A stretch of DNA of 64,000 bases. Origin: a phage. The notes below the pieces were generated by a model that saw only the letters and a list, made by a program, of their open reading frames with translations, ran no database searches and was not told the DNA's origin. The DNA lies in the NCBI GenBank assembly GCA_020619395.1, contig GCA_020619395.1_4860.1. One strand, written 5' to 3'. Each line of letters starts with the position of its first letter. The first letter of the stretch is position 1. The translations under genes were made by a program, and so were the position numbers. Positions 10,909 through 28,212 of this stretch are shown in pieces.

Positions 10909-11069
10909 TTTAATTACGTGTGAGCTGTATATTGTGACAATAAACCTCCTAACTGTAACGATAACCCAAATCGCTTGTACACGGTTAGCCACTTTTTTCG
11001 CACAAAAGCCGGTTTATTGTCAACTAATTTACGAGTCGGGGCAGTTAATATGCCTCGAAGTACAAGTAG

Positions 11070-11116: not shown

Positions 11117-11326
11117 ATGAGCATTCGTGAAATCACCGCAGGCAGCGACGTTTCTGGTCTGGTAGAAGCAGGCACTGTTCAGGTTTCTGGACTGAGCACC
11201 GTTACCGAAGTTACCGAAGCGCTGGCTAAGAAAGCCGAAGCTGAAGGCGGCGTAGCATTTAAAGTTACCGCTTGTGGCGGCAACAACAAAATGTTCGGCA
11301 ACGCAATCTACTACGTAAACGCGTAA
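11117..11326 (+). CDS. DUF1471 (BhsA/YcfR/YdgH-like) domain protein without signal peptide (69 aa)
   Basis: C-terminal ..EALAKKAEAEGGVAFKVTACGGNNKMFGNAIYY resembles the BhsA family from memory; RBS ggag; codon usage like highly expressed enterobacterial genes. Confidence 0.5.
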   Translation: MSIREITAGSDVSGLVEAGTVQVSGLSTVTEVTEALAKKAEAEGGVAFKVTACGGNNKMFGNAIYYVNA

Positions 11327-12716: not shown

Positions 12717-15700
12717 ATGGCTGTCGTCCCTGACCCGCACTATCAAGAACCGGGGAATATGCAGACCGGTGAAGCGGTAACGCCGATCGGTACTAAGTAC
12801 CGGATGCTGTTCCCCGCACACGCCCCCTTTTATACCACATCCCTGGTGGTCAAGAGTGGCGGCAAGAAATTAACATTAGGTGATGATTACGTCATCACCC
12901 ATGCGTACGTTACGGGCATGGCCCGCACTGGCCATGTTTGTCACGGCGGCGTGTGGATTACCAACCCGAAATACCAGAGCGGCTTTACACTCGATTACCA
13001 TGCAATTGGTATCGGCGAAGCCACTGCAGAAATGATCGCCGCAGAACGAGAAGCGAATAAAGATCGCTATCCCGTAGACTGCCAATGGGATAACGTCATT
13101 GGGGATTTATATTTCCCACCGGTCGATATTAAGTTCGATTGGGAAAACTGGCGTGGCGAATCTGAGTTGATGGAAGCCATTGTTGCGGTTGGTGCTAAGC
13201 TCGGTGAAGCGATCAGTCGCGTTGACCCGATTGCTCGTAACACGTTAGACCTTCAATATCGCGCCGGCGTCACGCTTATCACATCCGAGCAGTATGCGAC
13301 GTACGACGGTACTGGCGGCTACACGTATAACGCGTCGCGTCGTCGTTATTCGTTATCTTACCAGAACACGACATTCGATGCGTATTCGTTAGCGGTAAAA
13401 CACCGTTTACCGAGCATTCCACCGGAAACAACGTTGAACCCAGGCGAGCTGATCGATTGGATGCTCTGTTACGCAAACGGCGGGACAAGTATCCTGCGTC
13501 TTCAGTTGAAGCAACGCGCGATTTATCTTACCTTAACGACAGCGATTGGTTCCGGTTCGTCTAATTACAGCTATACGTTAACTACTGGCCTGACCGATAC
13601 CGAGTTGGCGGGTGAGGTTGAGTTTAGCGTGGTCAGACGCGAAGGTAACGGCGTTTACGACATCACCGTTAAAACAAGCAAGCAAACCGTTAACTACAGC
13701 TTTAACGTTGACAACCCACCGAGCGAATTTGCACCAGGGTATCAGAAAACTGATGTCGCAAAATGGTTGAAGTTTAAATCGGACGTCAACCTAAACTGGT
13801 GGGCAGGTGAGAACGATTACGTCCAGATTCGCTCATTACCTGGCGCACCGTCGCCTGACGTTAACAATGACGTGTACCAGCTGCTGGTAAAATATCACCA
13901 GATTGTCGATAAACTGTACCGTGATGCACCGGCACACACACACGTGCCGCGCAAGGATAACCCGCATCGCGATTCGTGGGGCGCAATCCGTGCTTTGGAG
14001 AATAACGGTATTGCTTCGGACGCGACGCTGGTATACGGAAAAACGCAACCGCAGCTGACAGATTACGTTAACAATCTGTTGCCGAAACTGTCAACGCTGG
14101 CGAATAAGCTTTTACGTTTACCGACGGCTGCACAGTCTATCAACGGCACGTTCGGCATGAAGCCTGGCCTGACTTCAATAACGTCAGCAGTGGGTACCGA
14201 TGAGTCTGAAGGCGTGGGTGCACAATTTACGGTTGACCCGAGGGTTATCCGTTTTATTGGACGCGATTCGCAAACCGTTAACGCCGGGAACAATCCGATT
14301 ACATGGCAAGGTGGGGCTAACCAACTCATCCTTTATCCGGATTCCCGTGGATTGGAGTTCAACGGTAAGAAATTGTTGGACCCTACTACGGTCGGGCCGT
14401 ACCTGCCGGGCAACGAGTCGGGTGGTGATGGACTATTTTACGGAACATCCACAGCTACTGTAACCATTAACGGTAACGGTATTCAGTCTGTTCCGTTCAT
14501 TTGTACTTTTGTTCCACCGGAGTCCGACGACCTTGGCCTGATGGCTGTCCGTTTGTTGGCTACTGAATTCGGTGATCGTGAGGACTTGGCCGCAACGCCG
14601 GCACTCATCAAGAAATTGGATCAGCAGTTTACGGGCAAGTTGGTTGCCGTTAAATCGTACATCAACGACATGCCACTGACGAGTTCTATTTACATCGATA
14701 AAACTAACTTCGGCTTATCGAACGTACAGAACGTCCCAGATGTACAATTGCCGATCTCCCCGCTCCAACAAGCTGAGCTGGACAAGTATGCATTCGTTGG
14801 TCACACACACACTCCTGCTGCGCTCGGGATTAAGCGTGCAACAACGACGGAGTTCGGTTTAGTACAGTTCGGCACCGCGGTTGATGATGCCACGCTGGCA
14901 TTAGACGGCGGTGAGGTCATCCGACAGGCGGACGCCATCACAGAGATAGAGAAGGTTGCGAAGACAGTCGACTCTGGTGCTTCAATCAATATTATTCGTT
15001 ACGGTTTACCCGGCACGGATATCATTGAAAACGGCATCACTTACACCGACTGGATGGTTACTATTAAAGCGAACGATTATTTCGTTGGTCGCGAGTACAA
15101 AGTACCTCTCTCCACATTTAACTTGGCTGAGCTATTCCCAGCGACGCACGAAGATGCTGAGTTTGGCGTGTATGTTGACGCGGCGGGCGATGATGGCAAG
15201 TACATTATCTACGAAAATCCAAACACGGCAGAAACTGAGACGATGACCAAAATAGGTTCCATCATCACCAGTGAAACCGGTGTGGTTTTTGTAGAAATCC
15301 GCAACGTAACGCGTTTAGGTGAGTTTCGTGAATTAGGCGAGCATGTCGAGGACGATAACGCCCATATTCGTCGGGGTATGTCGCAAGCTGAATTCGGATT
15401 TACTTACGGTACAGGCGGGCCTGTGTGGTCCACGGGCGCGCCGGGTACAAAACGTATAGATGCTGATTGGCGTTACGCGCAGGCTAGCAGCTATACGCCT
15501 ATGTTGAAAGCGGACTACGATCCGGCTGCTGATAAATGGACGTTTAAAACAACCAGTTTATCTGTAGCCGATTATCGTTTTGTCCACAACACATTCCCGA
15601 TGTTCCAGAATAACGGCATTACCGCAACGTGGACACCTTTAACCGCAACAGCGGACAGTGTGCTAGAAACGGTAATTGGGTGTTGTCATCACTCGGCCAC

Positions 15701-16430
15701 GTTCATGCACCGTATTTCTGTACTCGTCGCACGCACCGCAGGGCGTATCACCACTCCAGGCGGCGTGAGCACGTATGCGGGAATCGCGGTTAACTACGGA
15801 CGTGCTGCACAGGTTGTTATTGGCTTGAACGGCGTTACTGGTTCCGGCCATGACTGGACGGCACTTAACCCATCGGTGCGTTTCAGCCACACGCGAACAG
15901 CGGACGGTATTTCGTTCGAGGGAACGATTAACATCGATTCCAAAACGATCAACTTTGAGCTGACGCTAACCGCGACAACAAAGACGCTGAAATACACCTT
16001 GCAGTCGACCGGCGAGTCGTGGACTGAGGATTTGTCTACCCGTCTCCGTCCTGACTATATCGACTTGACGAAACTGATTACCGATCCGAGTACGCCGATT
16101 TATCACGGCGTGGGTGGTTTGTTTAGTTCCGACACAGAAGCGCGTTTGACTTACGCTAACCTGAACACGATGCCGACAAAGAATCGTTATTACGCCACGT
16201 TCCTTGACTATGCGATTAACTATTCCGGCTTAAACCGCGCAAGATTCTTTACTGGCGTGGTGGATGCAGGTTTAACGATTAATGAGATGAACAGCGCGAT
16301 GTGCAACTATTCATACAGTTCGTTCCGACCAGTGGATGCAGGTAAAATTCCACTGGTGGCACACCCATCCAAGATGATGACGTTCAATCCGAAAAACACG
16401 TCAGCTCGAACACTTATTATTCGTGATTAA
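12717..16430 (+). CDS. tail fibre protein 1 (1237 aa)
   Basis: RBS aaaaggag; shares N-terminal domain with next three genes; GHTHT..ATTTEFGLVQFG fibre-type repeat motifs. Confidence 0.65.
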   Translation: MAVVPDPHYQEPGNMQTGEAVTPIGTKYRMLFPAHAPFYTTSLVVKSGGKKLTLGDDYVITHAYVTGMARTGHVCHGGVWITNPKYQSGFTLDYHAIGIGEATAEMIAAEREANKDRYPVDCQWDNVIGDLYFPPVDIKFDWENWRGESELMEAIVAVGAKLGEAISRVDPIARNTLDLQYRAGVTLITSEQYATYDGTGGYTYNASRRRYSLSYQNTTFDAYSLAVKHRLPSIPPETTLNPGELIDWMLCYANGGTSILRLQLKQRAIYLTLTTAIGSGSSNYSYTLTTGLTDTELAGEVEFSVVRREGNGVYDITVKTSKQTVNYSFNVDNPPSEFAPGYQKTDVAKWLKFKSDVNLNWWAGENDYVQIRSLPGAPSPDVNNDVYQLLVKYHQIVDKLYRDAPAHTHVPRKDNPHRDSWGAIRALENNGIASDATLVYGKTQPQLTDYVNNLLPKLSTLANKLLRLPTAAQSINGTFGMKPGLTSITSAVGTDESEGVGAQFTVDPRVIRFIGRDSQTVNAGNNPITWQGGANQLILYPDSRGLEFNGKKLLDPTTVGPYLPGNESGGDGLFYGTSTATVTINGNGIQSVPFICTFVPPESDDLGLMAVRLLATEFGDREDLAATPALIKKLDQQFTGKLVAVKSYINDMPLTSSIYIDKTNFGLSNVQNVPDVQLPISPLQQAELDKYAFVGHTHTPAALGIKRATTTEFGLVQFGTAVDDATLALDGGEVIRQADAITEIEKVAKTVDSGASINIIRYGLPGTDIIENGITYTDWMVTIKANDYFVGREYKVPLSTFNLAELFPATHEDAEFGVYVDAAGDDGKYIIYENPNTAETETMTKIGSIITSETGVVFVEIRNVTRLGEFRELGEHVEDDNAHIRRGMSQAEFGFTYGTGGPVWSTGAPGTKRIDADWRYAQASSYTPMLKADYDPAADKWTFKTTSLSVADYRFVHNTFPMFQNNGITATWTPLTATADSVLETVIGCCHHSATFMHRISVLVARTAGRITTPGGVSTYAGIAVNYGRAAQVVIGLNGVTGSGHDWTALNPSVRFSHTRTADGISFEGTINIDSKTINFELTLTATTKTLKYTLQSTGESWTEDLSTRLRPDYIDLTKLITDPSTPIYHGVGGLFSSDTEARLTYANLNTMPTKNRYYATFLDYAINYSGLNRARFFTGVVDAGLTINEMNSAMCNYSYSSFRPVDAGKIPLVAHPSKMMTFNPKNTSARTLIIRD

Positions 16431-16442
16431 GGAGATTTTTGA

Positions 16443-19400
16443 ATGAAAACGTATCCTTACGATCCTCGGGGTGTAAATCCCGAGTGTCACTTCATCGAGG
16501 AACGTATCATCGACTCCGACAATCCTAACGATCGGGTGGTGATGCTAGATCATCGCCCGTTTTTCGAAGGATTGGTGGTAAGGCTCGCCGGCTCGTCCAT
16601 ACCGCTTACCCGCGGGACGGACTATGAGCTGGAGTATGCTTTAACACCGTTGGACGACTCGGTGACGACCCCGGTGTTTTGCGGGGTGCATCTTATTAAC
16701 CCTAAACTGCGTGGTGCGGTGGTCTTTGAAGGCCAGATGCTCGGGGGTACGTTTTACAGTGGTTTGATTGAGATGTTGGATGAGCTAATTAAGGCACTCA
16801 ACAACCCAACGGCTGCAGATTGGCTGCTTTTAGGTAATCGACCTTCCCTGTACCCAGCCACCCCTGCAGCGGTAGCTTGGTCAGACATGCTGAATAAAAA
16901 GTATGTTGCCTCTGCAGTGCATGATGTGGAGTTAGATGCCGGGGCGGCCAACGAGCAGATTCGTGAAAAGCTTACTGAGCTGAAAGATGCGGTTTTGGGC
17001 TTAGGAACTGAAATCGCCACATTTAACTACCCCGGACACATTGCGTCCACTAACCCTCATGGGACTACCGCGGCGCAGGCCGGTGCGCATCCTGTCAACC
17101 TGAAAACGCCAGATACTTTCCTGGCGTATGGAAAGACGTTGCGTCAGTTAACCAGCGAGGTCCGTGCACTGGGTCTGCAACAATCGGATATCGACAAGTA
17201 CATTTCTAAATGGGTATCGAAAGAATCCAAAGGGGTGTTTAATGCGACGATATCCGGTACTCGTGCCCTGTTCCGTTCTCCTGCTGGTGAATCCGAAATT
17301 GTGTTCTCTGCTGAGGCATTCACTCTTAAATCTAATGGCTCTGTTGTGTTGGCGTGTGGGTATGCCGACACTACTGGAACCGCCCGGTTTATGGAGTGGA
17401 AAGCAGGCAACAATACATTACGTATTGAGTCGACTGGCAGTGCCTTGGGGATGGATAAGCTGACGCTTAATGGTACGACGTTACTGACCACAACTGCTCT
17501 CATGGGCTATCAACAAGACCCTGGTACCGGCGGTGGTACCGTTGACCCGGATGACAACAAACTGTACATTAGCGGGGTGAACGGCATTACTTTCACGGGT
17601 AAAGGGTCAAAAGCCGATCCCGTCACCGGGAAGGTCACAGCCAAACCCGCGACGACCTCTGAACCTGGCGTTGTGACGCTGACTGATAAGCCGAGCGATG
17701 TAGTCAAGGGACAAGCAGTCACCCCAGCTTCGCTCTTACCGTACGAGGGTGATCTGTCTTCGTACGTCAGGAAAACAACGCTGCTGAATAACCAGCCGAT
17801 GGACACTGGTAGCCGAACGCTAACGAAAAAGGATTTGGGTCTGGACTTGGCTGATAACACAGCTGACGTCGATAAACCACTTTCTGATGCGTTGGCAGAA
17901 GCAGTTACCGGTCTTAGTGATAAAGATCACCATCACAACTTCGCCGATTTACAGATCCCAACGGCTTCTCAAACAGTTCCCGGTATCGCTCGATATTCTA
18001 CCAACCTAAACGGCTTGTCGGATAATCGCGGCGTTACCCCGAACGTTCTGAACGATTTGTCAAAACGTTTAGACGTAGTTGCAGCTGCGCTAGCAAACGC
18101 GAAAGAGGATTCCGTGACCGATTTTGCCGCTGTGCGCGGTAAGACTTGGACTGTGGGATCTACACGTACCACCCTCGCCGTAACGGATTTGAATTATTTC
18201 TATCTGTTAAATGGTGCACGTAAAGAGGGGACGGTATCTGGTTCGATAGACTTGCAAACCACCCCGATGTTCCAGTGGTTCTCTCCAGATAACCGTATGG
18301 AAAGAACGTGGCAGAACGCGGTAATTAATACCGGTGCCGGTATTGATTTTAGTGGGTTTGAGGTTGCCGTCCCGGAAACGAACTACGGTGCGCAGATTGG
18401 GTTAACGACAACCGGAATGGGTGATTTGTCGGTCGTTAACCTCTTGGCGAAAACGTGGGTTCGTTGCGACTCTGGTAAGCTGCGGATTTGGGTTCGTGGC
18501 GGTGGTGCTGTTTCTGTTTATCTGGACGGTGAAATTATCGGTGCGGGTATTACAGAAGCGGGGTATCTGGAGGCGAAGGTCAAGGAGGGGTGGAAGCAAC
18601 ACTGCTTAGCATTCCGTGCCGAGTGTAACGATAGCGCTAAAGCAGCCGCAATTCGTTTCACAATTTACGACGGTGACTTTGCGGTTGGGGCCTCGGATAA
18701 AAACACCAAAGTTGCCCGCCTGCAGGAGTTTGTTAAGACGCCGAACGGTTTAAGGCATTACCTTTACGTGAACATGATAACCGATGCGTTATATTCGCGC
18801 GCCGAACCTATTGTGGACACGGAAGGTATTAACCTGGAACGTGGGTATATCGGCCACATTGATGTCCCTGACGCGGGATTGGTTGCAGGCACGACTTACG
18901 AGTTTGAAACGACGTTTGATTTTGGCATGGCGTCCGAACTTAAACGGCACTTCGAAACACGTCTAGCACACGGGGTGAGTAACACCGACTGGTCGTTGAC
19001 GGATAACCCGAAAATGCTGCCGTTGAATAAGGTTGATCCATTACCTAAACAATGGCTGTATGCGTATCCAACTAACCCGTCTGTTTCTGGGGATAACCTC
19101 GTTCGTTTAGATCGTGGGTTATTTGATTATAAATTCGTAAGTGCCACCTCGCTTAGGATTCTTCTTGCGGCGGTTGTTTCCACTGAAAACGCGTCCCCGT
19201 ATTGCTGGTTTACACCAAGCAACCCGAAAGAAAATGGTATGGCGACATTCGAGGGTTCGGTGGTAATCGACACTGATTATCCTGAAGTCCCAAAAACCTC
19301 GGACGTCGAAGTTTCATTAAACTTCATGACCCCTTCTGCTGATGGGAAAGGTAAAACCAGAGTCCTGCGGTGGAGTAACACCAAGACCAGTTTAAATTGT

Positions 19401-20573
19401 GGCTTTATTGCCGCGCCGTACGATAAACCAACCGGAAGAATTGCCAGCACACAATCCAGCGTTACTAATACGCTGGTTGATGCTCCTCGTGTAATCAAGA
19501 GCGTGGATGTTCAGTCGCCTGACTGTTTAGACTATCTCCCGGTTTCAATCGCTAGCGAGTTCGCAGCCATTGGTTCGCGCTGGCTTATTCGTTATCGCTA
19601 TATTGTTGATACGCAGATACTGCGAATATCGACGATTAGTAAGATAGGTGGCCAGGCTTCGGCAACTGTTCGTGAGATAGAATACGACGTTCCGTTTGAC
19701 GCGATTGATTATTTTAAAGGTGGCGCTTTATCGATTAGTGTTACTGGCATCGAAACTGGTGAAGGCGTCACAATCAACCACGGTTTGATGGACCCCTCCA
19801 CAACAGAAGTAGATTTAAATCGTTTCCATTATCTACGCTCACTATTTGAGTCGTATATTGAGCGTTCTCCAGACAGCCAGTCTTCTGGGCATGAGGAGAT
19901 GTCGATATCAACCGTCACGTTCGCGAACTTTGGAGATAACGTCGATAACCCGGTTACGGAATACATCACGATGTCTGCTGCAAGTGAGGGTTATCCGGAA
20001 CTTGCACCGAACGGTAAACTCCCCGCACCGTTTTACAAAGGGCTGCAGAAACGTGGTGCTCCGCTACTTGAGTCGGCTCCTGCAGACTATACGTCTAACG
20101 GTGGTGAATGGAAGTACGGCTTTATGCGGGCTTATCGCCCAACTCAAAATGAGCGTTTTGTGTCGGTAAATGGGACAATGCTCTCTAACTACCCTGGATA
20201 TATCATCGTGGGTAGTGAGAAAATTCCGGGTAATGTTATACCTTTCAGTGCATCGACAACAGCTGTTCAGATATCTGGGACTCTTGCCCGCACGAAACCG
20301 ATGCAGCCAATTCACATCGTGTTCGTGCCTCCGGAAGGTTCTGTGCCGCCGCTGCAAGCGAAGTTCACTATTAATGGCGTGGGCAGTAGTGGTAATCCGA
20401 TGTTCGTGATTACTGAAACGACACCGGTGGAACTTCGCACTGGTGGCGAGACGATTCTCATTGAGAAGCGTAATCCATTCCACATCCCCACCAGGACATG
20501 GGATTGGATTTTACAAACGTTGGATACTGAACGTAGAAACGAAGGCAACAACTCGGGTGAGTGGGCCTCTTAG
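16443..20573 (+). CDS. tail fibre protein 2 (1376 aa)
   Basis: RBS aaggag; DHHHNFADL and TASQTVPGIARYS / ATTSEPGVVTLT fibre repeat motifs. Confidence 0.7.
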   Translation: MKTYPYDPRGVNPECHFIEERIIDSDNPNDRVVMLDHRPFFEGLVVRLAGSSIPLTRGTDYELEYALTPLDDSVTTPVFCGVHLINPKLRGAVVFEGQMLGGTFYSGLIEMLDELIKALNNPTAADWLLLGNRPSLYPATPAAVAWSDMLNKKYVASAVHDVELDAGAANEQIREKLTELKDAVLGLGTEIATFNYPGHIASTNPHGTTAAQAGAHPVNLKTPDTFLAYGKTLRQLTSEVRALGLQQSDIDKYISKWVSKESKGVFNATISGTRALFRSPAGESEIVFSAEAFTLKSNGSVVLACGYADTTGTARFMEWKAGNNTLRIESTGSALGMDKLTLNGTTLLTTTALMGYQQDPGTGGGTVDPDDNKLYISGVNGITFTGKGSKADPVTGKVTAKPATTSEPGVVTLTDKPSDVVKGQAVTPASLLPYEGDLSSYVRKTTLLNNQPMDTGSRTLTKKDLGLDLADNTADVDKPLSDALAEAVTGLSDKDHHHNFADLQIPTASQTVPGIARYSTNLNGLSDNRGVTPNVLNDLSKRLDVVAAALANAKEDSVTDFAAVRGKTWTVGSTRTTLAVTDLNYFYLLNGARKEGTVSGSIDLQTTPMFQWFSPDNRMERTWQNAVINTGAGIDFSGFEVAVPETNYGAQIGLTTTGMGDLSVVNLLAKTWVRCDSGKLRIWVRGGGAVSVYLDGEIIGAGITEAGYLEAKVKEGWKQHCLAFRAECNDSAKAAAIRFTIYDGDFAVGASDKNTKVARLQEFVKTPNGLRHYLYVNMITDALYSRAEPIVDTEGINLERGYIGHIDVPDAGLVAGTTYEFETTFDFGMASELKRHFETRLAHGVSNTDWSLTDNPKMLPLNKVDPLPKQWLYAYPTNPSVSGDNLVRLDRGLFDYKFVSATSLRILLAAVVSTENASPYCWFTPSNPKENGMATFEGSVVIDTDYPEVPKTSDVEVSLNFMTPSADGKGKTRVLRWSNTKTSLNCGFIAAPYDKPTGRIASTQSSVTNTLVDAPRVIKSVDVQSPDCLDYLPVSIASEFAAIGSRWLIRYRYIVDTQILRISTISKIGGQASATVREIEYDVPFDAIDYFKGGALSISVTGIETGEGVTINHGLMDPSTTEVDLNRFHYLRSLFESYIERSPDSQSSGHEEMSISTVTFANFGDNVDNPVTEYITMSAASEGYPELAPNGKLPAPFYKGLQKRGAPLLESAPADYTSNGGEWKYGFMRAYRPTQNERFVSVNGTMLSNYPGYIIVGSEKIPGNVIPFSASTTAVQISGTLARTKPMQPIHIVFVPPEGSVPPLQAKFTINGVGSSGNPMFVITETTPVELRTGGETILIEKRNPFHIPTRTWDWILQTLDTERRNEGNNSGEWAS

Positions 20574-20574
20574 G

Positions 20575-20648
20575 ACGGACTGCCTACGGGCGGGTAGTCC
20601 GTAGGTAAACCGCCCTTCCGTTATTGGGAGGGCGGTCTCCGTTTTATT
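20575..20648 (+). terminator. tandem hairpins, terminator
   Basis: GC-rich hairpin 20575-20605 then accgccc/gggcggt hairpin 20609-20636 followed by T-run. Confidence 0.55.
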
Positions 20649-20668
20649 ACAGATTAGGAGTGTTTGCA

Positions 20669-23600
20669 ATGCCGAGAGAAGATGCGGCGCAGTTTAACGG
20701 TACCCTCAGTACCGCTACTTACCCGAACCGTTATTCGACGGTCATTCCCGTCGAAGCACCGTTCTATCGCATCGGGTTAACGTTAACCGTTACCGATAAA
20801 ACAACCGGAACCAAACGCAAGTTAATAGAAGGTCTTGATTATTTCTTAGGACATTACTTCCAGGAATTAGCCGAGGCTGAGAACGATGCAATATACGGCA
20901 GCATAATGCTGCTGAACGCCACAGAGGTAGAATACGAGTTGTTGTCGGTTGGTCGACAGTATCGCATCCCTGCTTCTGAAATCGGCAAGTATCTGGTTAA
21001 GACAGATATGAAAGACCCGCGTAACTGCGATTGGTCTGAGCTGATGAAATATCCGCCGATTATCTCGCCAATCGACCCGCCAAAAGATCTCGAAGAAGCC
21101 ATCCTTCGCGATGAGATTGTAAAGGCGCTGGAAGATATCCGACTGGGCATTTTAGAACGTGCCCACGAACTGGATGAGGCTTTTGCCGAAGTTACCGATT
21201 TGATTTATCAGAACGGTAAACAGGTGTTTGATGACGAAATGTATCAACACCACCTGATTAAAAATGCACATGGTTACACCTGTGGCGATATCGGTGCACT
21301 CCCTGTGCTCGGTAAGGCCGTGGATGCGACTAAGGCGTTTGGACGTACACTGGCAGAGCTAGTGACGTTAATGTCTACCAGCGGCATCCAACAGAAACAC
21401 GTTGACATGCTTCTGGATAATACCCTGGGTGATTTACTGGGCCGTATGCGTGTTCTGAATAACGACGCGATTACGTTCCAAACAACGTCTGGTCACGTTA
21501 TCAGCATGAAGGGTGAGAAGTTCATTATCACCTCGACAAAACCGCTGGTATTAAAAGCTGACCAGGATAACAACGAACCGGGTATCGCTACGGAGTTCAG
21601 TGCTGGTCTGAACACGCTTTGGGTTCACTCGGGTAAAGCAGGTGACAAGTGGGGCGCTTATGATGCAGGTGTGCTTGCACCTGTATATAACAGCGTGTAT
21701 CTCGTTACACCGGATATGGTTAAGATGTACTTGACCTCGGTGAAGATACTTCCAGCAAACGCCTACTTCAAGTCCAGCGACACGTTGAAGATTTACGGCT
21801 CTGGTAAAGAAACAAACAAAGTTTACATGAATGCGGAGCTGCCTGCAGCAACCACAACTGTGCAGGGTTTGTTTGCGATTACTAACCTCTCGGCATCCGC
21901 TGCAGCGTCCACAGCGATTTCCCAAAAAGCTGTTACTGACTTGAAGAACAAACTCGACGGATATGTGGACGACACGTATACAGTCAATGGTAAAGGGTTT
22001 GTATTAGATTCAAACGGGCAGATGCATCTGACCTTAACCGCGGCAGATTTCGGTATTGAGAAGATGAACAATACCGGACCGCTGGAGAAACCGGTTACTA
22101 ATGCGTTGCGCACCGTGCTATCAGGCAAAGCGCTTACAACGCACACCCACACCATTGCAGATCTCGATAACGTGCCGTACGCATCCACGTCTGTTACAGG
22201 TTTGGCTAAACTGTGGGATGCAATCGACACTACCTCGGATAAGATGGTCACTTCGCGTCAGGGCTTCTTGCTTGAACAAAAGATTGACACACTGAATGAC
22301 AAGATTGCTACGCTGTTGCCCGCATGGACTGTCGGCGGATCATCGTACGGCAACAATAACTTCTTGCCTATACCTGTCCAGGGGAACTACGAAGGGTATA
22401 CCAAAAACCAAACCTGGCAGAAAGGTTTGGCGCGTTACGAGTCTGGTAAGGTTTACTCGCTCCGTAACGGTTCTAACGGGAATCCACCAGGTGACTGGGC
22501 TATCTATTACGCCTATGCTGATGTGTCGCCAAGCAATACGCTGGAAAATATGCAGCAGACGTCCGTACGTTATCGACCCGCTGGAATGTCGGCGTATCCT
22601 GGGGTGAATCTGGTTGCTATTGTGATTACCGGTACCGATGCAATGATCTGCTTAGGCAGTGACGGTGCGTACTACCTGGTCATCTTCGATGGGACGATTG
22701 ACCATGCAAAACATCATCGTGTTGTTAAAGTGGTGTTGGGTGATTACAAGAACGGTAATGGTGCGGGCACAGTAACGACAGCACCGTGGGCTCCAAACGC
22801 TTCTACAGACGATTTGATTGTTTGTAATGAGCGTGTCTACCTGTTGCGTACGGTGCTTACCTCCGGTGACTATTTCGTGAGTATGCGTAGCATCGCACTC
22901 AACGAACTTAATCCGGGTGGTAGCAACACGTTTGTGGCGGATGCGTTAACAGGCGGGATATTAACGTCGGGTGAAAACGTTTATCTACGACAGGGACAGA
23001 AACGTGCAGCTTCCGATGCGCTCCCAGCACCAGTTACACAGATCTACGCAGACGCGTTAGCGAAATGGAACAATGCAATCAACTTTGTACATGGCCCTGA
23101 GTGTAATCACGCGATTGGTGTTGATGGGCTGAAATTTCGTGTTGGTTTAACGCCAACAGTCTGGTTTGCCTCCTCCACAGGACAGACGATTAACTTTAAA
23201 CAGTGGACGTCAAGCTTTGTTGTCGACTGTAGCGCATTAACGGTAACTCTGGAAGGCGCTGATCGATTCCCTATTGTGGCTGATCTTACCACGGTTCGTT
23301 ATAACAGTGGTGCTGAGATTGGGATTCCGAGCCGGAAGTGGGGCGAAGGCCAAGCTAATAACAAAACCTTTGCAACATCGCAAGACAAGTATATTGTTTC
23401 GCAAGGACATGCAGGCGATCGCGACCTAATGCCTTATGTCACGATTACAACGTTAGATGACGGTGTGAGTTGGTACGAGTACCTGTCGTGCGACTACAAC
23501 TTCACTGCCAGAAGTTTTAGTGCGGTAATGTTAAACCAAGGTCGTGGTTCTATCTACGAGCTGGGTATGGCGTATCCGCTGACTCTGGGAGCGAATTCCA

Positions 23601-25852
23601 GACTTATCTGGTTGTCACAACCGCGTTCCCGTTTGGCAATTGAAGTTGAGTTTGATCCGAACACCACTTACTCAGGTAAGGCGGGGTATGGCCCAACTAA
23701 CAATCGTCGTGTAGTAGATTCTATCACGTATGAGAATCTGTCGCAGATGTGCCACATTGTTACACCGGCGTCGCCTGGTACAGAGTTAAACGGCTGGTAT
23801 TGCACAGGACCAGAAACATTCCCTTATCACAACGTTTCTGGCACTTTCACGATTCATGCCGATCGGTTGACGCTGTCACAAGCCGAATGGGATAAGATGA
23901 AGCAGATGATCATCGACGGTGCACCGGCTGGCGCTGCGAATGGTTATGCTTCGGAATTTATCCTTGCCGCAAATAACGCAGGAAAGGCATTGTTCTCCGT
24001 TTGGTTCATCGGCATTGGTACGGCCACACCGCTCACGTTAGCACAAGTAGCATGTACGCGTACTGTGAACAACGTTAACGTGTTGGATATCTACTACTTT
24101 ACACTGAAACCAACAATCAGCAACGGGCAGGTAACATTCCCCGCAGCGATATTGGCTTTGTTTGACTTCTATAACAACCTCGACTATGGCTTGAACTATG
24201 CTACGTTGGGTGAGATAACGGGAGGAAAAACACGCCGGCCGGGACAACCTACACTGGTGTCGGTAGATGGTACTCGGTTCGGGTTGTATCTTCCACACAC
24301 GTTAACCTTGCGCCTGATTGGCGACTTGGGTGCGCTTAACTACGCTGTTGGTCTTACGCTGTCTAATGGTACTTGGACGCGTTCTTCTGCTCCACACGGC
24401 GTTGGACGTATGGCACCGGCACACACTCCAGTCAGTCCAGCTTATCTGGCCCATCGCGATCAAGTGATGCTACACAACTCATCTCTCGACTACGTCTACT
24501 GTGGTGGTATCGCAACGTCGTCGAGTGATTTTGTCGCGGCTCCTAATTTTAGTGGCCCGACTGAATCGGTTGTCATTGCTGGTGTGGAAACAGCTGAAGG
24601 TTGGCTGGTATATGTGACTGAGGAAGTTGACCTGCGTTTCGGCTCGAGCACTTATAAGCTGCCTACGTGGTATATTGACCTCAGCGCAGCATTTCCAACA
24701 AACCATCAGAACCGGACATTCTACCTGCACGCCAAGGTAGAAAATGGTACACCGAAGTACGTAATGGACGTGATTCAACATCCAGACACTGAAACGGAAC
24801 TCTATATCGGGTATGTTAAAACGGGCTCGTCGCGAGTCGTCGAGACTAACGTCGAACATGCTAAGCGATTAGGGGCGGTGAAACAACTGTTGGAACATGC
24901 GGCGGTTGAGAATAAGCATGATGTGGAGGTGGGAAGGGATGCAGCAACGGGCAGACTGGCACCATTGCGTAAAGAAGCGATGGGTCCTTTGTCGATCGAT
25001 GCTACGAAAGGCTATCTGGATAGTCAGTTGCTTTATACCGTATCCGACGCACAGCGTCGCGGTAAAGCGATGGTGTCCAAACGTTTCGAAGGCTTGAAAA
25101 CTTTGCCGGCGTTTACTCAGGCAAACAAGTCGGGGGCGTTTTGGAAACATCCTACAACAATTGCGACGGTAACGGCCGATGAGAACAGTGAAGCGACATC
25201 GTTGGGTATGGAGTGGGTAGGTATTCCAACGCCCGCTTTCGCTCCGACCTCAACAAACCTGATGGTGGTGGTGCAAAGTAAATTCGTCGTCCCAGGTACA
25301 CCGGGAGTAGAAACGACCTTTAATGTCCACGTTGCCCCATGGGAGGCGGTGGATGGCTTTTTCTACAACGTCGAGGCGGAAGGTACGGATGTTAACATTG
25401 ATGAAAATCCAGAAGTGTTATTGCCGTCACCACATACCGTGCACCACAAACAGCACTCTCTGCCAGCAGGCGTGCCGTGTACCTTTACATTTGTCGCGGC
25501 GGTAAGTTCTTCAGCGCTCGAAACAGCTAACCAGCATATTTGCTCTTGGCTTTTCACTGACGCTGGGGGACTACCAATCACCACCGATCTTTCGGATAGT
25601 AAGATTCAAATCTTACCACAGCCGGGAGAGACCAACGGCACACCAGTTGTTCTGAACAGTCGTAGCTACACGTTTACGAATGTGACAGGTGCAATCCCGG
25701 TTGTTACCACGGGCGCTCAGGGTTTATTCCCACCACCGATCGTGGCGTGGGATGGCGATGATCTTACGTTAACGATTGCGCACGATTGGGTGAACGAGAG
25801 GGGACGTCAACAGCCTGATGTTATCCAGGTCAATCTTATGTTCCGTACCTAA
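20669..25852 (+). CDS. tail fibre protein 3 (~1727 aa)
   Basis: ORF starts at 20624 but the ATG at 20669 has RBS aggag and lies after the terminator; THTHTIADL..TSVTGLAKLW and ATTTVQGLFAITN motifs. Confidence 0.7.
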   Translation: MPREDAAQFNGTLSTATYPNRYSTVIPVEAPFYRIGLTLTVTDKTTGTKRKLIEGLDYFLGHYFQELAEAENDAIYGSIMLLNATEVEYELLSVGRQYRIPASEIGKYLVKTDMKDPRNCDWSELMKYPPIISPIDPPKDLEEAILRDEIVKALEDIRLGILERAHELDEAFAEVTDLIYQNGKQVFDDEMYQHHLIKNAHGYTCGDIGALPVLGKAVDATKAFGRTLAELVTLMSTSGIQQKHVDMLLDNTLGDLLGRMRVLNNDAITFQTTSGHVISMKGEKFIITSTKPLVLKADQDNNEPGIATEFSAGLNTLWVHSGKAGDKWGAYDAGVLAPVYNSVYLVTPDMVKMYLTSVKILPANAYFKSSDTLKIYGSGKETNKVYMNAELPAATTTVQGLFAITNLSASAAASTAISQKAVTDLKNKLDGYVDDTYTVNGKGFVLDSNGQMHLTLTAADFGIEKMNNTGPLEKPVTNALRTVLSGKALTTHTHTIADLDNVPYASTSVTGLAKLWDAIDTTSDKMVTSRQGFLLEQKIDTLNDKIATLLPAWTVGGSSYGNNNFLPIPVQGNYEGYTKNQTWQKGLARYESGKVYSLRNGSNGNPPGDWAIYYAYADVSPSNTLENMQQTSVRYRPAGMSAYPGVNLVAIVITGTDAMICLGSDGAYYLVIFDGTIDHAKHHRVVKVVLGDYKNGNGAGTVTTAPWAPNASTDDLIVCNERVYLLRTVLTSGDYFVSMRSIALNELNPGGSNTFVADALTGGILTSGENVYLRQGQKRAASDALPAPVTQIYADALAKWNNAINFVHGPECNHAIGVDGLKFRVGLTPTVWFASSTGQTINFKQWTSSFVVDCSALTVTLEGADRFPIVADLTTVRYNSGAEIGIPSRKWGEGQANNKTFATSQDKYIVSQGHAGDRDLMPYVTITTLDDGVSWYEYLSCDYNFTARSFSAVMLNQGRGSIYELGMAYPLTLGANSRLIWLSQPRSRLAIEVEFDPNTTYSGKAGYGPTNNRRVVDSITYENLSQMCHIVTPASPGTELNGWYCTGPETFPYHNVSGTFTIHADRLTLSQAEWDKMKQMIIDGAPAGAANGYASEFILAANNAGKALFSVWFIGIGTATPLTLAQVACTRTVNNVNVLDIYYFTLKPTISNGQVTFPAAILALFDFYNNLDYGLNYATLGEITGGKTRRPGQPTLVSVDGTRFGLYLPHTLTLRLIGDLGALNYAVGLTLSNGTWTRSSAPHGVGRMAPAHTPVSPAYLAHRDQVMLHNSSLDYVYCGGIATSSSDFVAAPNFSGPTESVVIAGVETAEGWLVYVTEEVDLRFGSSTYKLPTWYIDLSAAFPTNHQNRTFYLHAKVENGTPKYVMDVIQHPDTETELYIGYVKTGSSRVVETNVEHAKRLGAVKQLLEHAAVENKHDVEVGRDAATGRLAPLRKEAMGPLSIDATKGYLDSQLLYTVSDAQRRGKAMVSKRFEGLKTLPAFTQANKSGAFWKHPTTIATVTADENSEATSLGMEWVGIPTPAFAPTSTNLMVVVQSKFVVPGTPGVETTFNVHVAPWEAVDGFFYNVEAEGTDVNIDENPEVLLPSPHTVHHKQHSLPAGVPCTFTFVAAVSSSALETANQHICSWLFTDAGGLPITTDLSDSKIQILPQPGETNGTPVVLNSRSYTFTNVTGAIPVVTTGAQGLFPPPIVAWDGDDLTLTIAHDWVNERGRQQPDVIQVNLMFRT

Positions 25853-25899
25853 CAGATAGCGCTATGGGGCAAGGAAGCCCCAATCAAAGGAGTTTGGCA

Positions 25900-27102
25900 A
25901 TGGCCGAAATCATTTATCAGTACCCGCTTGACCTTACCGGGACATTAACGTCGAACGCCGTTACACGGCGTATTACGTTAGGTTCTGGTAAAGTTAACCG
26001 GGCTTTTGCTTTTCCTGACGGAGCTTTCTACGCGGATACCTTCCGCTTGGCAGCTGCGAATAAACCAGGTGTCTACCCGTACAAACGCGGCACAGACTAC
26101 GAACTGATTTTTGCACATACTGCATATCAGAAAATGACCAAGAACCGCGAAGTGGTCATGGGTGTGGTGGTAACTAACTCGGCCATTCCTACTGATATCG
26201 AAGTCTCTGCGCAAGTCGTTGGTGGTTTTCAGTCCGCGAACGTCGAAGGTATCCGACAAGCGATTGCGTCGCTGAAAATTGAAGACCGTGTGGTGGACTT
26301 CAAGGATCTTCGAAACGTACCTGATACGTTCCCATCCGCCCCGACGTATAAAGACCTTGGCGATATCTACGGTTTTGAGTATATCATTACCGTACTCGCT
26401 GGGATTAAAGATGCGATTAACTCCGGCTCTGCAGTACAGCTGGAAGAAATCAAAGGTATTCTGGACGGTCTGAAAAACGACTTCCTCGATGCCTTAAATG
26501 CCCACATCAACGCCGAAGGTAACGTACACAATCTCGACATTCATCAGGTTAATGGCCTGACGGAGACGGAGATTCGTGCTCTGATTCAAAGTGTACAGAC
26601 TGCCATTGACGCCACTATCAAAGATATCGGCGACTTAAGAGCAGCAGACACGGCGTTGGGGCAACGCATCGATGCAATTGTGGCTTCGTTAGCCGCGTGG
26701 AACGACCAGCTTAATGTAGTTGCTCAAAATTACCAGAAAATGTCGTTAGCATTAGCTAACCTTAATTCTCTGGTGTTGCAATTACAGAAGATGGTTAACG
26801 ATCTTCAGTCTGCACTGAATGAAACAAATCAGCGCGTCACGGATCTTGAGAATCAGGGCAAAGACTTCCAACAGCAAATTGATAACCTGCAAGGACAAAT
26901 CAACAGTCTTAAAACTCAGGTTATAAACAACACCAACGCAATTTCGCAGGCAAACCAGAATCTGGCGAACCATGCGGCTGCGGATAACCCACACCCGAAT
27001 TACCTCCATAAACAGTATGGCGGTGTTGTGCAGGCTGCTGTTCACGTCAACAACAGCCTCACCTCGCGCGACGATGTTCAAGCTGAAGCGGGTACTAAGT
27101 AA
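25900..27102 (+). CDS. tail fibre-like protein with coiled-coil segment (~400 aa)
   Basis: ATG at 25900 with RBS aaaggag; N-terminal domain shared with fibres 1-3; heptad-like Q/N-rich region; ADNPHPNY near C-terminus. Confidence 0.5.
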   Translation: MAEIIYQYPLDLTGTLTSNAVTRRITLGSGKVNRAFAFPDGAFYADTFRLAAANKPGVYPYKRGTDYELIFAHTAYQKMTKNREVVMGVVVTNSAIPTDIEVSAQVVGGFQSANVEGIRQAIASLKIEDRVVDFKDLRNVPDTFPSAPTYKDLGDIYGFEYIITVLAGIKDAINSGSAVQLEEIKGILDGLKNDFLDALNAHINAEGNVHNLDIHQVNGLTETEIRALIQSVQTAIDATIKDIGDLRAADTALGQRIDAIVASLAAWNDQLNVVAQNYQKMSLALANLNSLVLQLQKMVNDLQSALNETNQRVTDLENQGKDFQQQIDNLQGQINSLKTQVINNTNAISQANQNLANHAAADNPHPNYLHKQYGGVVQAAVHVNNSLTSRDDVQAEAGTK

Positions 27103-27111
27103 CTTGTTTAC

Positions 27112-27158
27112 GAGCCGGACTATGTTTATGGACATAGTCCGCTCGTTCTACTTTTTAA
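27112..27158 (+). terminator. hairpin plus T-run between fibre 4 and the peptide genes
   Basis: gagccggactatgt-ttatgg-acatagtccgctc then gttctactttttaa. Confidence 0.6.
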
Positions 27159-27167
27159 GGAAGCGTA

Positions 27168-27560
27168 ATGGCGATATCTATTAAAGACGTCAGAAACCGC
27201 GTCCAGATAGTCGAAGCTAACATGGCGACAGGCCCCCGCATCGAGGCGCAAGTGGCCTCTAAAGCCCATAATGCAGCAGACCGATTTGGGGGTTGGACGA
27301 AAGCACAGCTAGATTGCGGCGGGACATGTTCTTGGACGTGCTCTAACGGTTGCTCGCATGGCTGTTCGAGCTGTTCAGGAAGCTGTTCTGCTTCTTGTAT
27401 CGGTAGCTGTTCTTCGACGTGTGGCGGTAACTGTTCTGGTTGCTCTGGTTGTTCTGGTGGTTGCAGTAGTAGCTGTACCGGTAACTGTTCAGGTGGTTGC
27501 GGCGGCTCTTGTTCCGCAAACTGCTCCGGGGCCTGCTCCGGCGGCTGTTCAGGTCGCTAA
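27168..27560 (+). CDS. Cys-rich repeat peptide 1 (130 aa), candidate RiPP precursor
   Basis: RBS aaggaag; ~48 aa leader then ~80 aa core with Cys about every 4th residue (CSxx units, ~22 Cys). Confidence 0.7.
   Translation: MAISIKDVRNRVQIVEANMATGPRIEAQVASKAHNAADRFGGWTKAQLDCGGTCSWTCSNGCSHGCSSCSGSCSASCIGSCSSTCGGNCSGCSGCSGGCSSSCTGNCSGGCGGSCSANCSGACSGGCSGR
27312..27557. repeat. low-complexity tetrapeptide-codon repeat (C-x-x-x)n in peptide 1
   Basis: periodic tgc/tgt every ~12 nt; creates spurious ORFs in other frames. Confidence 0.8.
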
Positions 27561-27570
27561 GGGGGATTAA

Positions 27571-27972
27571 ATGGCAATTGGATTAAAAGAACTGAATAAC
27601 CGATTAAACGCGATCGATGCAAACGCTTTAAAGAACACCACGAATGTGCAAAACTACATTCGCAATAAAGCTACGAATAACGCCGACTTGTTCGCAGGTC
27701 AAGGCCGTTCGCACTATGACTGTGGTGGCACATGCTCTTTTAGTTGCTCGAGTTGTTCTGGCGGGTGTACTGGGTCTGCTACGGGCGGTTGTGGGTCGAC
27801 TTGTTCCGCAAACTGTGTATCGGGCTGTAGCAGTAGCTGTACGGGCTGTAGCTCTTCGTGCTCGGGTGGTTGTAGCGGAACGTGTACTGGTAACTGTTCT
27901 GGGGGTTGTGGTAAATCCTGCTCCGCAAACTGCTCCGGCGCGTGTTCTGGTGGTTGTTCAGGTCCTAACTGA
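27571..27972 (+). CDS. Cys-rich repeat peptide 2 (133 aa), candidate RiPP precursor
   Basis: RBS aagggggat; leader similar to peptide 1; C-terminal ~30 aa nearly identical to peptide 1. Confidence 0.7.
   Translation: MAIGLKELNNRLNAIDANALKNTTNVQNYIRNKATNNADLFAGQGRSHYDCGGTCSFSCSSCSGGCTGSATGGCGSTCSANCVSGCSSSCTGCSSSCSGGCSGTCTGNCSGGCGKSCSANCSGACSGGCSGPN
27718..27969. repeat. low-complexity (C-x-x-x)n codon repeat in peptide 2
   Basis: same periodic Cys codon pattern. Confidence 0.8.
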
Positions 27973-27983
27973 CGGAGGCTTAT

Positions 27984-28190
27984 GTGATCAGTCTCAAGAC
28001 TATTCGAAACCGTCTCGTTACGGTAGAAGGTTACATTACAACCGCACAGGCAAACAACTATATCGCTAACCAGGGCACCGTGTCGACCACAAATAACCTG
28101 GCTGGCTTACCGCTTTCTCACTATAACTGTAATGGTGGGTGTAGCTGGTCCTGCAGCGGAAGCTGTAGCCGTGGAGCGGGGAATCGATAA
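27984..28190 (+). CDS. short Cys-rich peptide 3 (68 aa), candidate RiPP precursor
   Basis: GTG start with RBS ggagg; leader MISLKTIRNRL.. matches peptides 1/2; short core CNGGCSWSCSGSCS. Confidence 0.55.
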   Translation: MISLKTIRNRLVTVEGYITTAQANNYIANQGTVSTTNNLAGLPLSHYNCNGGCSWSCSGSCSRGAGNR

Positions 28191-28212
28191 CAGAAAACGT
28201 TCGGAGTATTAA

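Follow-up and report, generated by a model that had tools for sequence, protein, structure and literature searches.

The 65-nt gap between the last fibre gene and the first of three Cys-rich peptide genes of an SPN3US-like phage carries a conserved hairpin at 27110–27146, whose loop, TATG, is also the start-site motif of phiKZ-type promoters. We propose that the phage's own RNA polymerase meets two superimposed signals in this gap, a fibre-operon terminator and, nested within it, a promoter. Judged from the sequence, the junction promoter is probably real and termination at the junction is reasonably likely, whereas the full arrangement, with both activities real, is to our mind an evenly balanced proposition. 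Since the loop is the phage start-site motif, the peptide genes probably have a promoter of their own and would not need read-through from the fibre genes. All positions refer to the window, that is, the whole 64,000-nt stretch of DNA that was analysed, and the features discussed are collected in Table 1.

The window is 97–99% identical to Salmonella phage SPN3US and its close relatives and is assigned to an SPN3US-like jumbo phage, related to phiKZ. Several RNA polymerase β-like genes are found in SPN3US, which, by analogy, would transcribe its genome with its own polymerases (PMC4666361, PMC7598289). Genes for large virion or fibre proteins occupy the plus strand from 12717 to 27102. SPN3US gp168 has been described as a tail protein similar to the fibre-associated gp131 of phiKZ (PMC5105663), and we infer that it corresponds to the gene at 20669–25852, taking the published gene number to be 266 minus the RefSeq number. 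The last gene of the cluster encodes a protein with a coiled-coil C-terminal half; a ribosome-binding site, AAAGGAG, precedes its ATG at 25900, and the open reading frame start at 25864 represents an upstream extension. The three peptide genes that follow are conserved in 18 of 18 related contigs and their products give a weak match to TIGR04114, the CXXX-repeat target family. In public records they are unannotated or mis-annotated: the “gp100” of the SPN3US RefSeq entry is an out-of-frame ORF (27644–27979), and several Erwinia phage records have minus-strand ORFs called across them. Further downstream, the second radical SAM protein has its best matches to TIGR04115 (CXXX-repeat peptide maturase; 3e-36) and to PapB, both below the cut-off. 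The region 27168–32534 contains no other gap of at least 35 nt, and the cassette is therefore treated as one unit.

Table 1. Features of the fibre–peptide junction, the downstream cassette and the promoter-like sites of the window
Feature	Position	Strand	Remarks
Last fibre-cluster gene	25900–27102	+	Homologue of SPN3US RefSeq gp099 (virion structural protein)
Candidate upstream promoter element, TTTAC	27107–27111	+	−23 to −19 relative to G27130; AC invariant in 20 sequences
Hairpin 5′ arm (ACGAGC, bulged C27116, GGACTATGTT)	27110–27126	+	Would fill the promoter spacer
Outer stem, 6 bp	27110–27115 (ACGAGC) with 27141–27146 (GCTCGT)	+	RNAfold
Bulged C	27116	+	RNAfold
Inner stem, 10 bp	27117–27126 (GGACTATGTT) with 27131–27140 (GACATAGTCC)	+	RNAfold
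Tetraloop TATG	27127–27130	+	From the fold; matches the start-site motif of phiKZ-type nvRNAP promoters
Hairpin 3′ arm (GACATAGTCC and GCTCGT)	27131–27146	+	Would be +2 to +17 of a transcript started at 27130
T-rich tail TCTACTTTTT	27147–27156	+	Candidate termination zone for fibre-gene transcripts
Ribosome-binding site and start codon of peptide gene 1	27157–27170	+	AAGGAAG at 27157–27163; ATG at 27168
Three Cys-rich (CXXX-repeat-like) peptide genes	27168–27560, 27571–27972, 27984–28190	+
Protein without assigned function	28213–29100	+
First radical SAM protein	ends at 30037	+
Second radical SAM protein	30030–31358	+
Protein without assigned function	31321–31887	+
DUF4376 protein	31863–32534	+
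Bidirectional GC-rich terminator hairpin	32552–32575	.	Likely end of the cassette unit
Promoter-like motif site	2514–2536	−
Promoter-like motif site	11029–11052	+
Promoter-like motif site	27108–27130	+
Promoter-like motif site	61435–61457	−

The junction hairpin and its conservation

The hairpin begins 8 nt past the stop codon of the fibre gene (TAA, 27100–27102) and, as folded by RNAfold, is built of 16 base pairs and one bulged C, distributed over an outer and an inner stem, the latter closed by a U·G wobble pair. The first-pass annotation had described a terminator-like hairpin between the last fibre gene and the first peptide gene, with a 13-bp stem, a T-rich tail and about 10 nt between the end of the stem and the ribosome-binding site of the first peptide gene. 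The hairpin is present there and is conserved among 20 related sequences, the tail has 7 T within the 12 nt past the stem, and the distance measures 10 nt; the stem stands too, at 16 pairs with a bulge and not at the length given. The predicted free energy is −23.7 kcal/mol (z −7.1 for 27103–27156 against dinucleotide shuffles), and in a wider frame of 76 nt (27100–27175) the z value is −4.3. Ranked by raw energy among all 54-nt windows of the 64 kb, both strands included, the hairpin is in the top 0.5%, but this does not decide the matter by itself, because many G+C-rich coding windows reach similar values. A consensus terminator scan of the window missed the hairpin, owing to its bulge and its interrupted T run, and an Rfam covariance-model scan of 26000–28500, with E up to 1, gave zero matches. 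Another strong inverted repeat, folding mainly on the minus strand (−25 kcal/mol), occupies 27019–27072; it belongs to the last fibre gene, in whose conserved 3′ end it lies about 40 nt short of the stop codon.

The junction was recovered from annotated phages of the genera Seoulvirus, Erskinevirus, Machinavirus, Wellingtonvirus and Derbicusvirus and from 18 IMG/VR contigs. A hairpin occupies the same place in all 20 distinct intergenic sequences, which cover the five named genera and metagenomic lineages, and it lies right after the stop codon in every contig that has a full-length fibre homologue and the Cys-rich peptide genes. Distant contigs that share only the N-terminal domain of the fibre protein have neither the peptide genes nor a hairpin with an apical TATG, and some of them bear ordinary terminator-like hairpins. 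Folded individually, 14 lineages gave z values from −2.9 to −7.1, and the position of the bulge moves from one lineage to another. The stems are almost wholly different between groups (for example CGGACTATGT, GAGGACCTGTC, CGGGCCTCGTC, AGGAGGAACTATGC and GGGCGTTACTC), and within Seoulvirus three base pairs are changed on both sides with the pairing kept. RNAalifold, applied to a MAFFT alignment of the 20 intergenic sequences, predicted no pairs, because the stems are too diverged and MAFFT sets them out of register. The per-lineage folds and an alignment-free arm-swap test took its place; a covariance model was not used, since an alignment fitted to the structure would be circular.

In the arm-swap test, the duplex of each lineage's own 5′ and 3′ arms has an average energy of −20.5 kcal/mol, compared with −9.9 ± 2.7 kcal/mol (n = 154) for arms swapped between lineage groups. 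G·U pairs are found on the plus strand in 13 of 16 lineages and on the minus strand in 3 of 16, and the plus-strand fold is the more stable one in 12 of 16. As the arms co-vary and the G·U pairs mark the sense strand, the pairing is, on this evidence, under selection; the same two observations indicate that what matters is a sense-strand structure, formed in RNA or in non-template DNA, and not a double-stranded protein-binding palindrome. Derbicusvirus phages keep the hairpin with compensatory changes (for example, GGGTG/CACCC versus GGGCG/CGCCC) and have no T-tract, so that canonical termination cannot be the whole reason for the stem.

The loop motif, its upstream element and related sites

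While the stems drift, the loop TATG is invariant in 20 of 20 sequences and always apical, with at least two of its four bases unpaired in all of them and at least three in 19. Apart from the loop, invariance is confined to one G/C stem pair, the AAGG of the ribosome-binding site and an upstream AC, which in the window makes up the first two bases of the outer stem and ends the TTTAC element. In general form, (T/A)(T/A)AC is separated from the downstream TATG by 15 nt, except in the Wellingtonvirus group, where an offset of 1 nt makes the distance 16 nt; the element reads TTAC in about two-thirds of the lineages, AAAC in Erskinevirus and TAAC in Derbicusvirus.

Both halves of this arrangement are known from phiKZ. 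Its late promoters consist of 5′-TATG-3′, the G being +1 (PMC4666361), and its middle promoters contain AAanTTACc at about −24, some of them together with TATG (PMC4666361; PMC7598289, which cites Ceyssens 2014 for phiKZ promoters). TATG is read on the single-stranded non-template strand by the β-like subunit of the phiKZ non-virion RNA polymerase (nvRNAP; Chen 2026, PMC12809450). The middle promoter P78M has the sequence AAAATTACC AAATGTGTTAAATA TATG, that is, AAAATTACC-N14-TATG, equivalent to TTAC-N15-TATG, and the G of its TATG is the mapped +1 (Yakunina 2015, PMC4666361). P78M and the junction agree in a TTAC-to-TATG spacing of exactly 15 nt and in a TATG that overlaps the start, and the two phages are of a related family that encodes split β/β′ RNA polymerases. 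They differ in that the start is mapped in phiKZ and only predicted here, and in that the A-rich 5′ part of AAanTTACc is weak in the window, although it is better in the relatives and at other SPN3US sites. In addition, descriptions of phiKZ promoters include nothing like the conserved inverted repeat that the spacer and the first 17 transcribed bases form at the junction. Purified phiKZ nvRNAP gave no in vitro transcription of middle promoters (PMC4666361, PMC7598289), so the form of the enzyme that would act here is uncertain.

No sigma-70-like host promoter was found in the gap. A start at G27130, which corresponds to position 144258 on the minus strand of SPN3US NC_027402.1, would leave a 5′ UTR of 38 nt, and the resulting short RNA (z −0.14) has the same local structure as the read-through RNA, with no difference in 5′ UTR fold that would affect the ribosome-binding site. 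An 18-codon upstream ORF beginning at the loop ATG (27128) was considered and rejected: it has no ribosome-binding site, its peptide is not conserved between lineages and it would be absent from a transcript that starts at G27130. The first-pass annotation held that only read-through or a promoter within the fibre gene could express the cassette. That alternative left a promoter overlapping the hairpin out of account, and a motif of the TTAC-TATG type was not found in the last fibre gene; the interval 27158–27168, allotted there to a possible start site, is too narrow, as the predicted start lies within the hairpin at G27130. Nor does a reduced stoichiometry relative to the fibres, also proposed there, follow from a sequence in which the motif of a candidate promoter overlaps the hairpin.

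The motif was placed in its genomic context by a census of TTAC-Nx-TATG, with x from 4 to 30, over 165 kb of annotated SPN3US sequence (NC_027402.1; L076, L077, L012, L013). The sole peak is at x = 15, with 16 occurrences, against typical counts of 0–8 at other spacings. Eleven of these sites, the junction site among them, are intergenic, in sense orientation and at most 150 nt upstream of a gene start, positions that make up 2.6% of all strand-positions (binomial P 1.4e-14); reversed and altered control motifs were flat, without comparable enrichment. The consensus of the intergenic sites is an A/T-rich stretch at −28 to −24, T-23 T-22 T-21 A-20 C-19 G/A-18, N14 and T-3 A-2 T-1 G+1. In the window alone, plain TTAC-N14-16-TATG is not enriched (10 seen versus 6.7 expected), and the enrichment appears only once gene-relative position and exact spacing are counted. 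In the Erwinia phages pEa_SNUABM_29 (pEa29) and Caitlin, the gp094 homologue likewise has a conserved copy of the motif upstream. For SPN3US, a motif of the TTTAC(G/A)-N14-TATG type is undescribed in the literature searched.

Several further sites resemble the junction in part. Upstream of the DUF1471 gene (11117–11326), the site at 11035–11057 (+) reads TTTACG-N-TATG with N16, and its TATG lies at the loop/3′-arm junction of an 8-bp hairpin, which a T-tract does not follow; pEa29 and Caitlin share the motif at this place but not the hairpin, and in them a canonical terminator precedes the motif, its T-tract entering TTTAC. Just past the stop codon of a baseplate gene, at 10914–10936 (+), TTAC-N15-TGTG is conserved in pEa29 and reads TTAC-N15-TATG in Caitlin, and it may be a variant start motif. 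In the 165 kb of SPN3US, both strands considered, TATG and its complement CATA are scarcer than a first-order Markov model predicts (686 observed versus about 1150 expected); codon usage could lie behind this, or a need to avoid spurious start sites. The only other strong TATG-loop hairpin of the window, a perfect 10-bp stem with the loop ATATGATC, is at 62673–62700 (+), antisense within the tail protein gene 61539–64000 (−). A different element, CAGATAKATRTTAY, is present in five copies (3863, 5683, 9452, 57384 and 61477, all on the minus strand) against 0.17 expected, in intergenic gaps upstream of minus-strand genes. It resembles the AT-rich consensus of phiKZ early (virion-polymerase) promoters, which we take to contain TATATTAC.

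Proposed termination at the junction and competing readings

In the arrangement that we propose, the stretch 27110–27146 would fold into the hairpin in fibre-gene RNA and be followed by UCUACUUUUU, giving a signal of the intrinsic-terminator type that would end or attenuate the fibre unit, some fraction of the transcripts stopping in the T-tract. The same DNA would contain a promoter of the phiKZ P78M type, with TTTAC at −23 to −19, the 5′ arm as spacer, TATG as the start motif and G27130 as +1. Transcripts begun at 27130 would carry the 3′ arm only; they could not form the hairpin for that reason and would escape the terminator, crossing the T-tract and running through the Cys-rich peptide and radical-SAM genes to the terminator at 32552–32575. 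The cassette would in this way be expressed from its own promoter, whatever the fraction of fibre transcripts that read through. We infer termination, initiation, their efficiencies and the acting form of the polymerase from sequence features, and the G+C-containing stem over the melting region might hinder initiation. In the literature searched there are no mapped 5′ or 3′ RNA ends or transcript maps for SPN3US-like phages (SPN3US, Seoulvirus), no proteomic time course for SPN3US or Seoulvirus and nothing on the radical-SAM cassette.

Elsewhere in this genome, ordinary terminators have G+C-rich stems, stable tetraloops of the UUCG type or GNRA-like, and tails such as TTCTTTTTTT, TTCTTATTTTTT and CCTTTTATTT. 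The tail of the junction (TTCTACTTTTT), that of phage SPAsTU (TTCTTACTTTTT) and that of pEa29 (TTCTTATTTTTT) are of the same type, and TTCT(T)A(C/T)TTTTT is the form shared by the intrinsic terminators of this phage. The ordinary terminators resemble the motif mapped in phiKZ, a hairpin plus TTAT (PMC10914365), and intrinsic terminators of phiKZ-like phages consist of a hairpin and a TTAT or T-rich tail (PMC10914365; PMC11512511). Like the terminators of phiKZ-like phages, the junction has a stem-loop right after a stop codon and a tail of the TTCTTAT(T)TTT type, and the hairpin is placed where the fibre transcription unit is expected to end. Unlike them and the other terminators of the window, its stem is A+T-richer (53% G+C versus 55–83% in the others checked) and its loop is the conserved TATG, in RNA the non-stabilising UAUG, instead of a stable tetraloop. 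The T-run is interrupted. Among the relatives, Erskinevirus and Machinavirus have a strong T-tract, Wellingtonvirus has a weak one and Derbicusvirus has none. The other window terminators checked have rough d-scores between −24 and +44, and the junction, at −19, falls among them; this d'Aubenton-Carafa-style score, computed with modern energies for 12 hairpins, is uncalibrated and serves for relative comparison only. By E. coli-type scoring the junction hairpin would thus be a weak terminator, and a phage polymerase may follow other rules. The likeness to a terminator seen in the first-pass annotation holds, in the type of tail and in the position at the end of the fibre unit, while its claim that read-through or a promoter in the fibre gene is obligatory is not supported.

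Two other hairpin regions of the window deserve description. At 20574–20668 (+), between two fibre genes, there are two consecutive strong hairpins; at −36.7 kcal/mol for the pair, no other 54-nt window of the 64 kb is as stable. Past the second hairpin comes CTCCGTTTTATTAC, which ends in a TTAC element and has no TATG at N15. At 35957–36034 (−), upstream of an endolysin homologue (35339–35956), a terminator T-tract abuts the annotated ATG (CTTTCTTTTTATGAC), and that gene has no visible ribosome-binding site.

Four alternatives to a terminator with a nested promoter were weighed. The junction could be a pure attenuator, that is, only a partial intrinsic terminator, with the cassette transcribed by read-through from the fibre promoter and with TATG and TTAC incidental. 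Phages such as T7 are well known to set stoichiometry with partial terminators, the hairpin and its T-rich tail are like the other terminators of the genome, and the cassette, without internal gaps of 35 nt or more, is a single unit. The loops of simple terminators drift, however, and here TATG is kept in every sequence with AC at a fixed distance. The TTAC-N15-TATG motif is moreover strongly tied to gene starts elsewhere in the genome and equals a mapped phiKZ promoter, and UAUG does not stabilise the stem in the manner of the UUCG-type or GNRA-like loops of ordinary terminators, all of which makes this reading unlikely.

Distinctly unlikely, in our estimate, is an inverted repeat that acts in DNA and involves no terminator, a non-template hairpin or open structure presenting the single-stranded TATG. 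Such a role would suit the phiKZ nvRNAP, which reads TATG in just that state and the rest of whose specificity is proposed to lie in the ease of strand separation (PMC12809450). The plus-strand DNA hairpin is stable (−15 kcal/mol, z −8.5), Derbicusvirus retains it without the T-tract, and a hairpin could form over TATG at 5 of the 13 SPN3US motif sites (z < −2.7). Most motif sites, however, have no hairpin (mean z −1.2 with the junction site excluded), and at the gp094 site pEa29 and Caitlin share the motif with the window but not the hairpin over TATG. TATG-loop hairpins are not enriched in the window either (12 versus 22.6 expected from shuffles), and the T-rich tail, needless for a pure promoter, is kept in most lineages. 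On these figures the broader idea that TATG-loop hairpins are a repeated element of the genome was discarded, and the idea that all promoters of this class need a hairpin is not supported. The repeat might still contribute to promoter recognition within the nested arrangement, the non-template strand extruding or opening so that TATG is shown as a single-stranded tetraloop to the β-like nvRNAP subunit, while the same structure in RNA stops upstream transcripts; we give this only a small chance of being right. If true, a multisubunit RNA polymerase would here use a hairpin promoter, and the repeat that displays TATG would account for some of the “missing specificity” of 4-nt TATG promoters. The hairpin promoters of phage N4, with a short stem of 5–7 bp and a 3-nt loop, are likewise DNA hairpins with recognition bases in or near the loop; they serve a virion RNA polymerase that is an unrelated single-subunit enzyme reading the template strand, and the likeness bears only on the reading in which DNA forms the hairpin, here a hypothetical structure.

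A function in RNA stability or processing is very unlikely. The hairpin would protect the 3′ end of the fibre mRNA after endonucleolytic cleavage of an A/U-rich tail, or mark a site that separates two mRNAs, which would fit the selection on the sense strand, the persistence of the hairpin where the T-tract is lost and the A/U-rich stretch 3′ of the stem; but it leaves the invariant TATG loop and the fixed upstream element unexplained, no Rfam family matches, and a 16-bp stem is short for RNase III. Finally, a palindromic operator for a dimeric DNA-binding regulator is extremely improbable: a near-perfect inverted repeat does overlap a promoter-like motif, and bacterial terminator palindromes can double as transcription-factor sites (bioRxiv 10.64898/2026.08.19.745784), but half-sites that are wholly different between lineages and yet complementary, the strand asymmetry of the G·U pairs and the moving bulges point to base pairing and not to protein recognition.

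Comparison with coupled signals and biological meaning

Both component signals of the proposed terminator with a nested promoter are of known kinds. T-phi of phage T7 is a partial terminator that sets expression ratios in a late operon. It matches the model of the first-pass annotation, in which a leaky terminator separates abundant structural genes from the genes that follow, and differs from the junction in that it needs no promoter, whereas the junction carries a promoter-like motif. In bacterial promoter-coupled terminators, transcription starts about 10 bp downstream of the termination site, the stem and T-tract providing the −35 element and the spacer for sigma-70 (Fletcher et al., bioRxiv 10.64898/2026.08.19.745784). 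The junction shares with these the use of one short intergenic DNA by adjacent tandem units for both signals. It differs in its phage polymerase and in a start that is predicted within the loop and precedes the T-tract by about 20 nt; 27130 comes before 27147–27156, while a start at most about 35 bp downstream of the termination site defines the bacterial class. The bacterial type of tandem geometry, so defined, is found elsewhere in this group, where a terminator T-tract runs straight into TTTAC at SPN3US positions 550, 94211 and 168867, in pEa29 and in Caitlin. Close coupling of terminator and promoter thus looks recurrent in this clade, and the junction looks like its most compact, interleaved form. 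A start placed in the loop, upstream of the T-tract, was not found for any jumbo-phage polymerase in the literature searched.

According to a 2020 review, the middle and late promoters of jumbo phages with RNA polymerases of their own escape bioinformatic prediction (PMC7598289). TTAC-N15-TATG can be read straight from an SPN3US-type genome and is tied to a mapped phiKZ promoter. If the proposed nesting is true, one transcription unit would be ended and the next begun within 65 nt, and a start in the terminator loop would by itself exempt the new transcript from that terminator. The Cys-rich peptide and radical-SAM cassette would then be a separately timed unit and no read-through appendage of the fibre genes, which would bear on hypotheses about the timing and amount of the peptides relative to the fibres.
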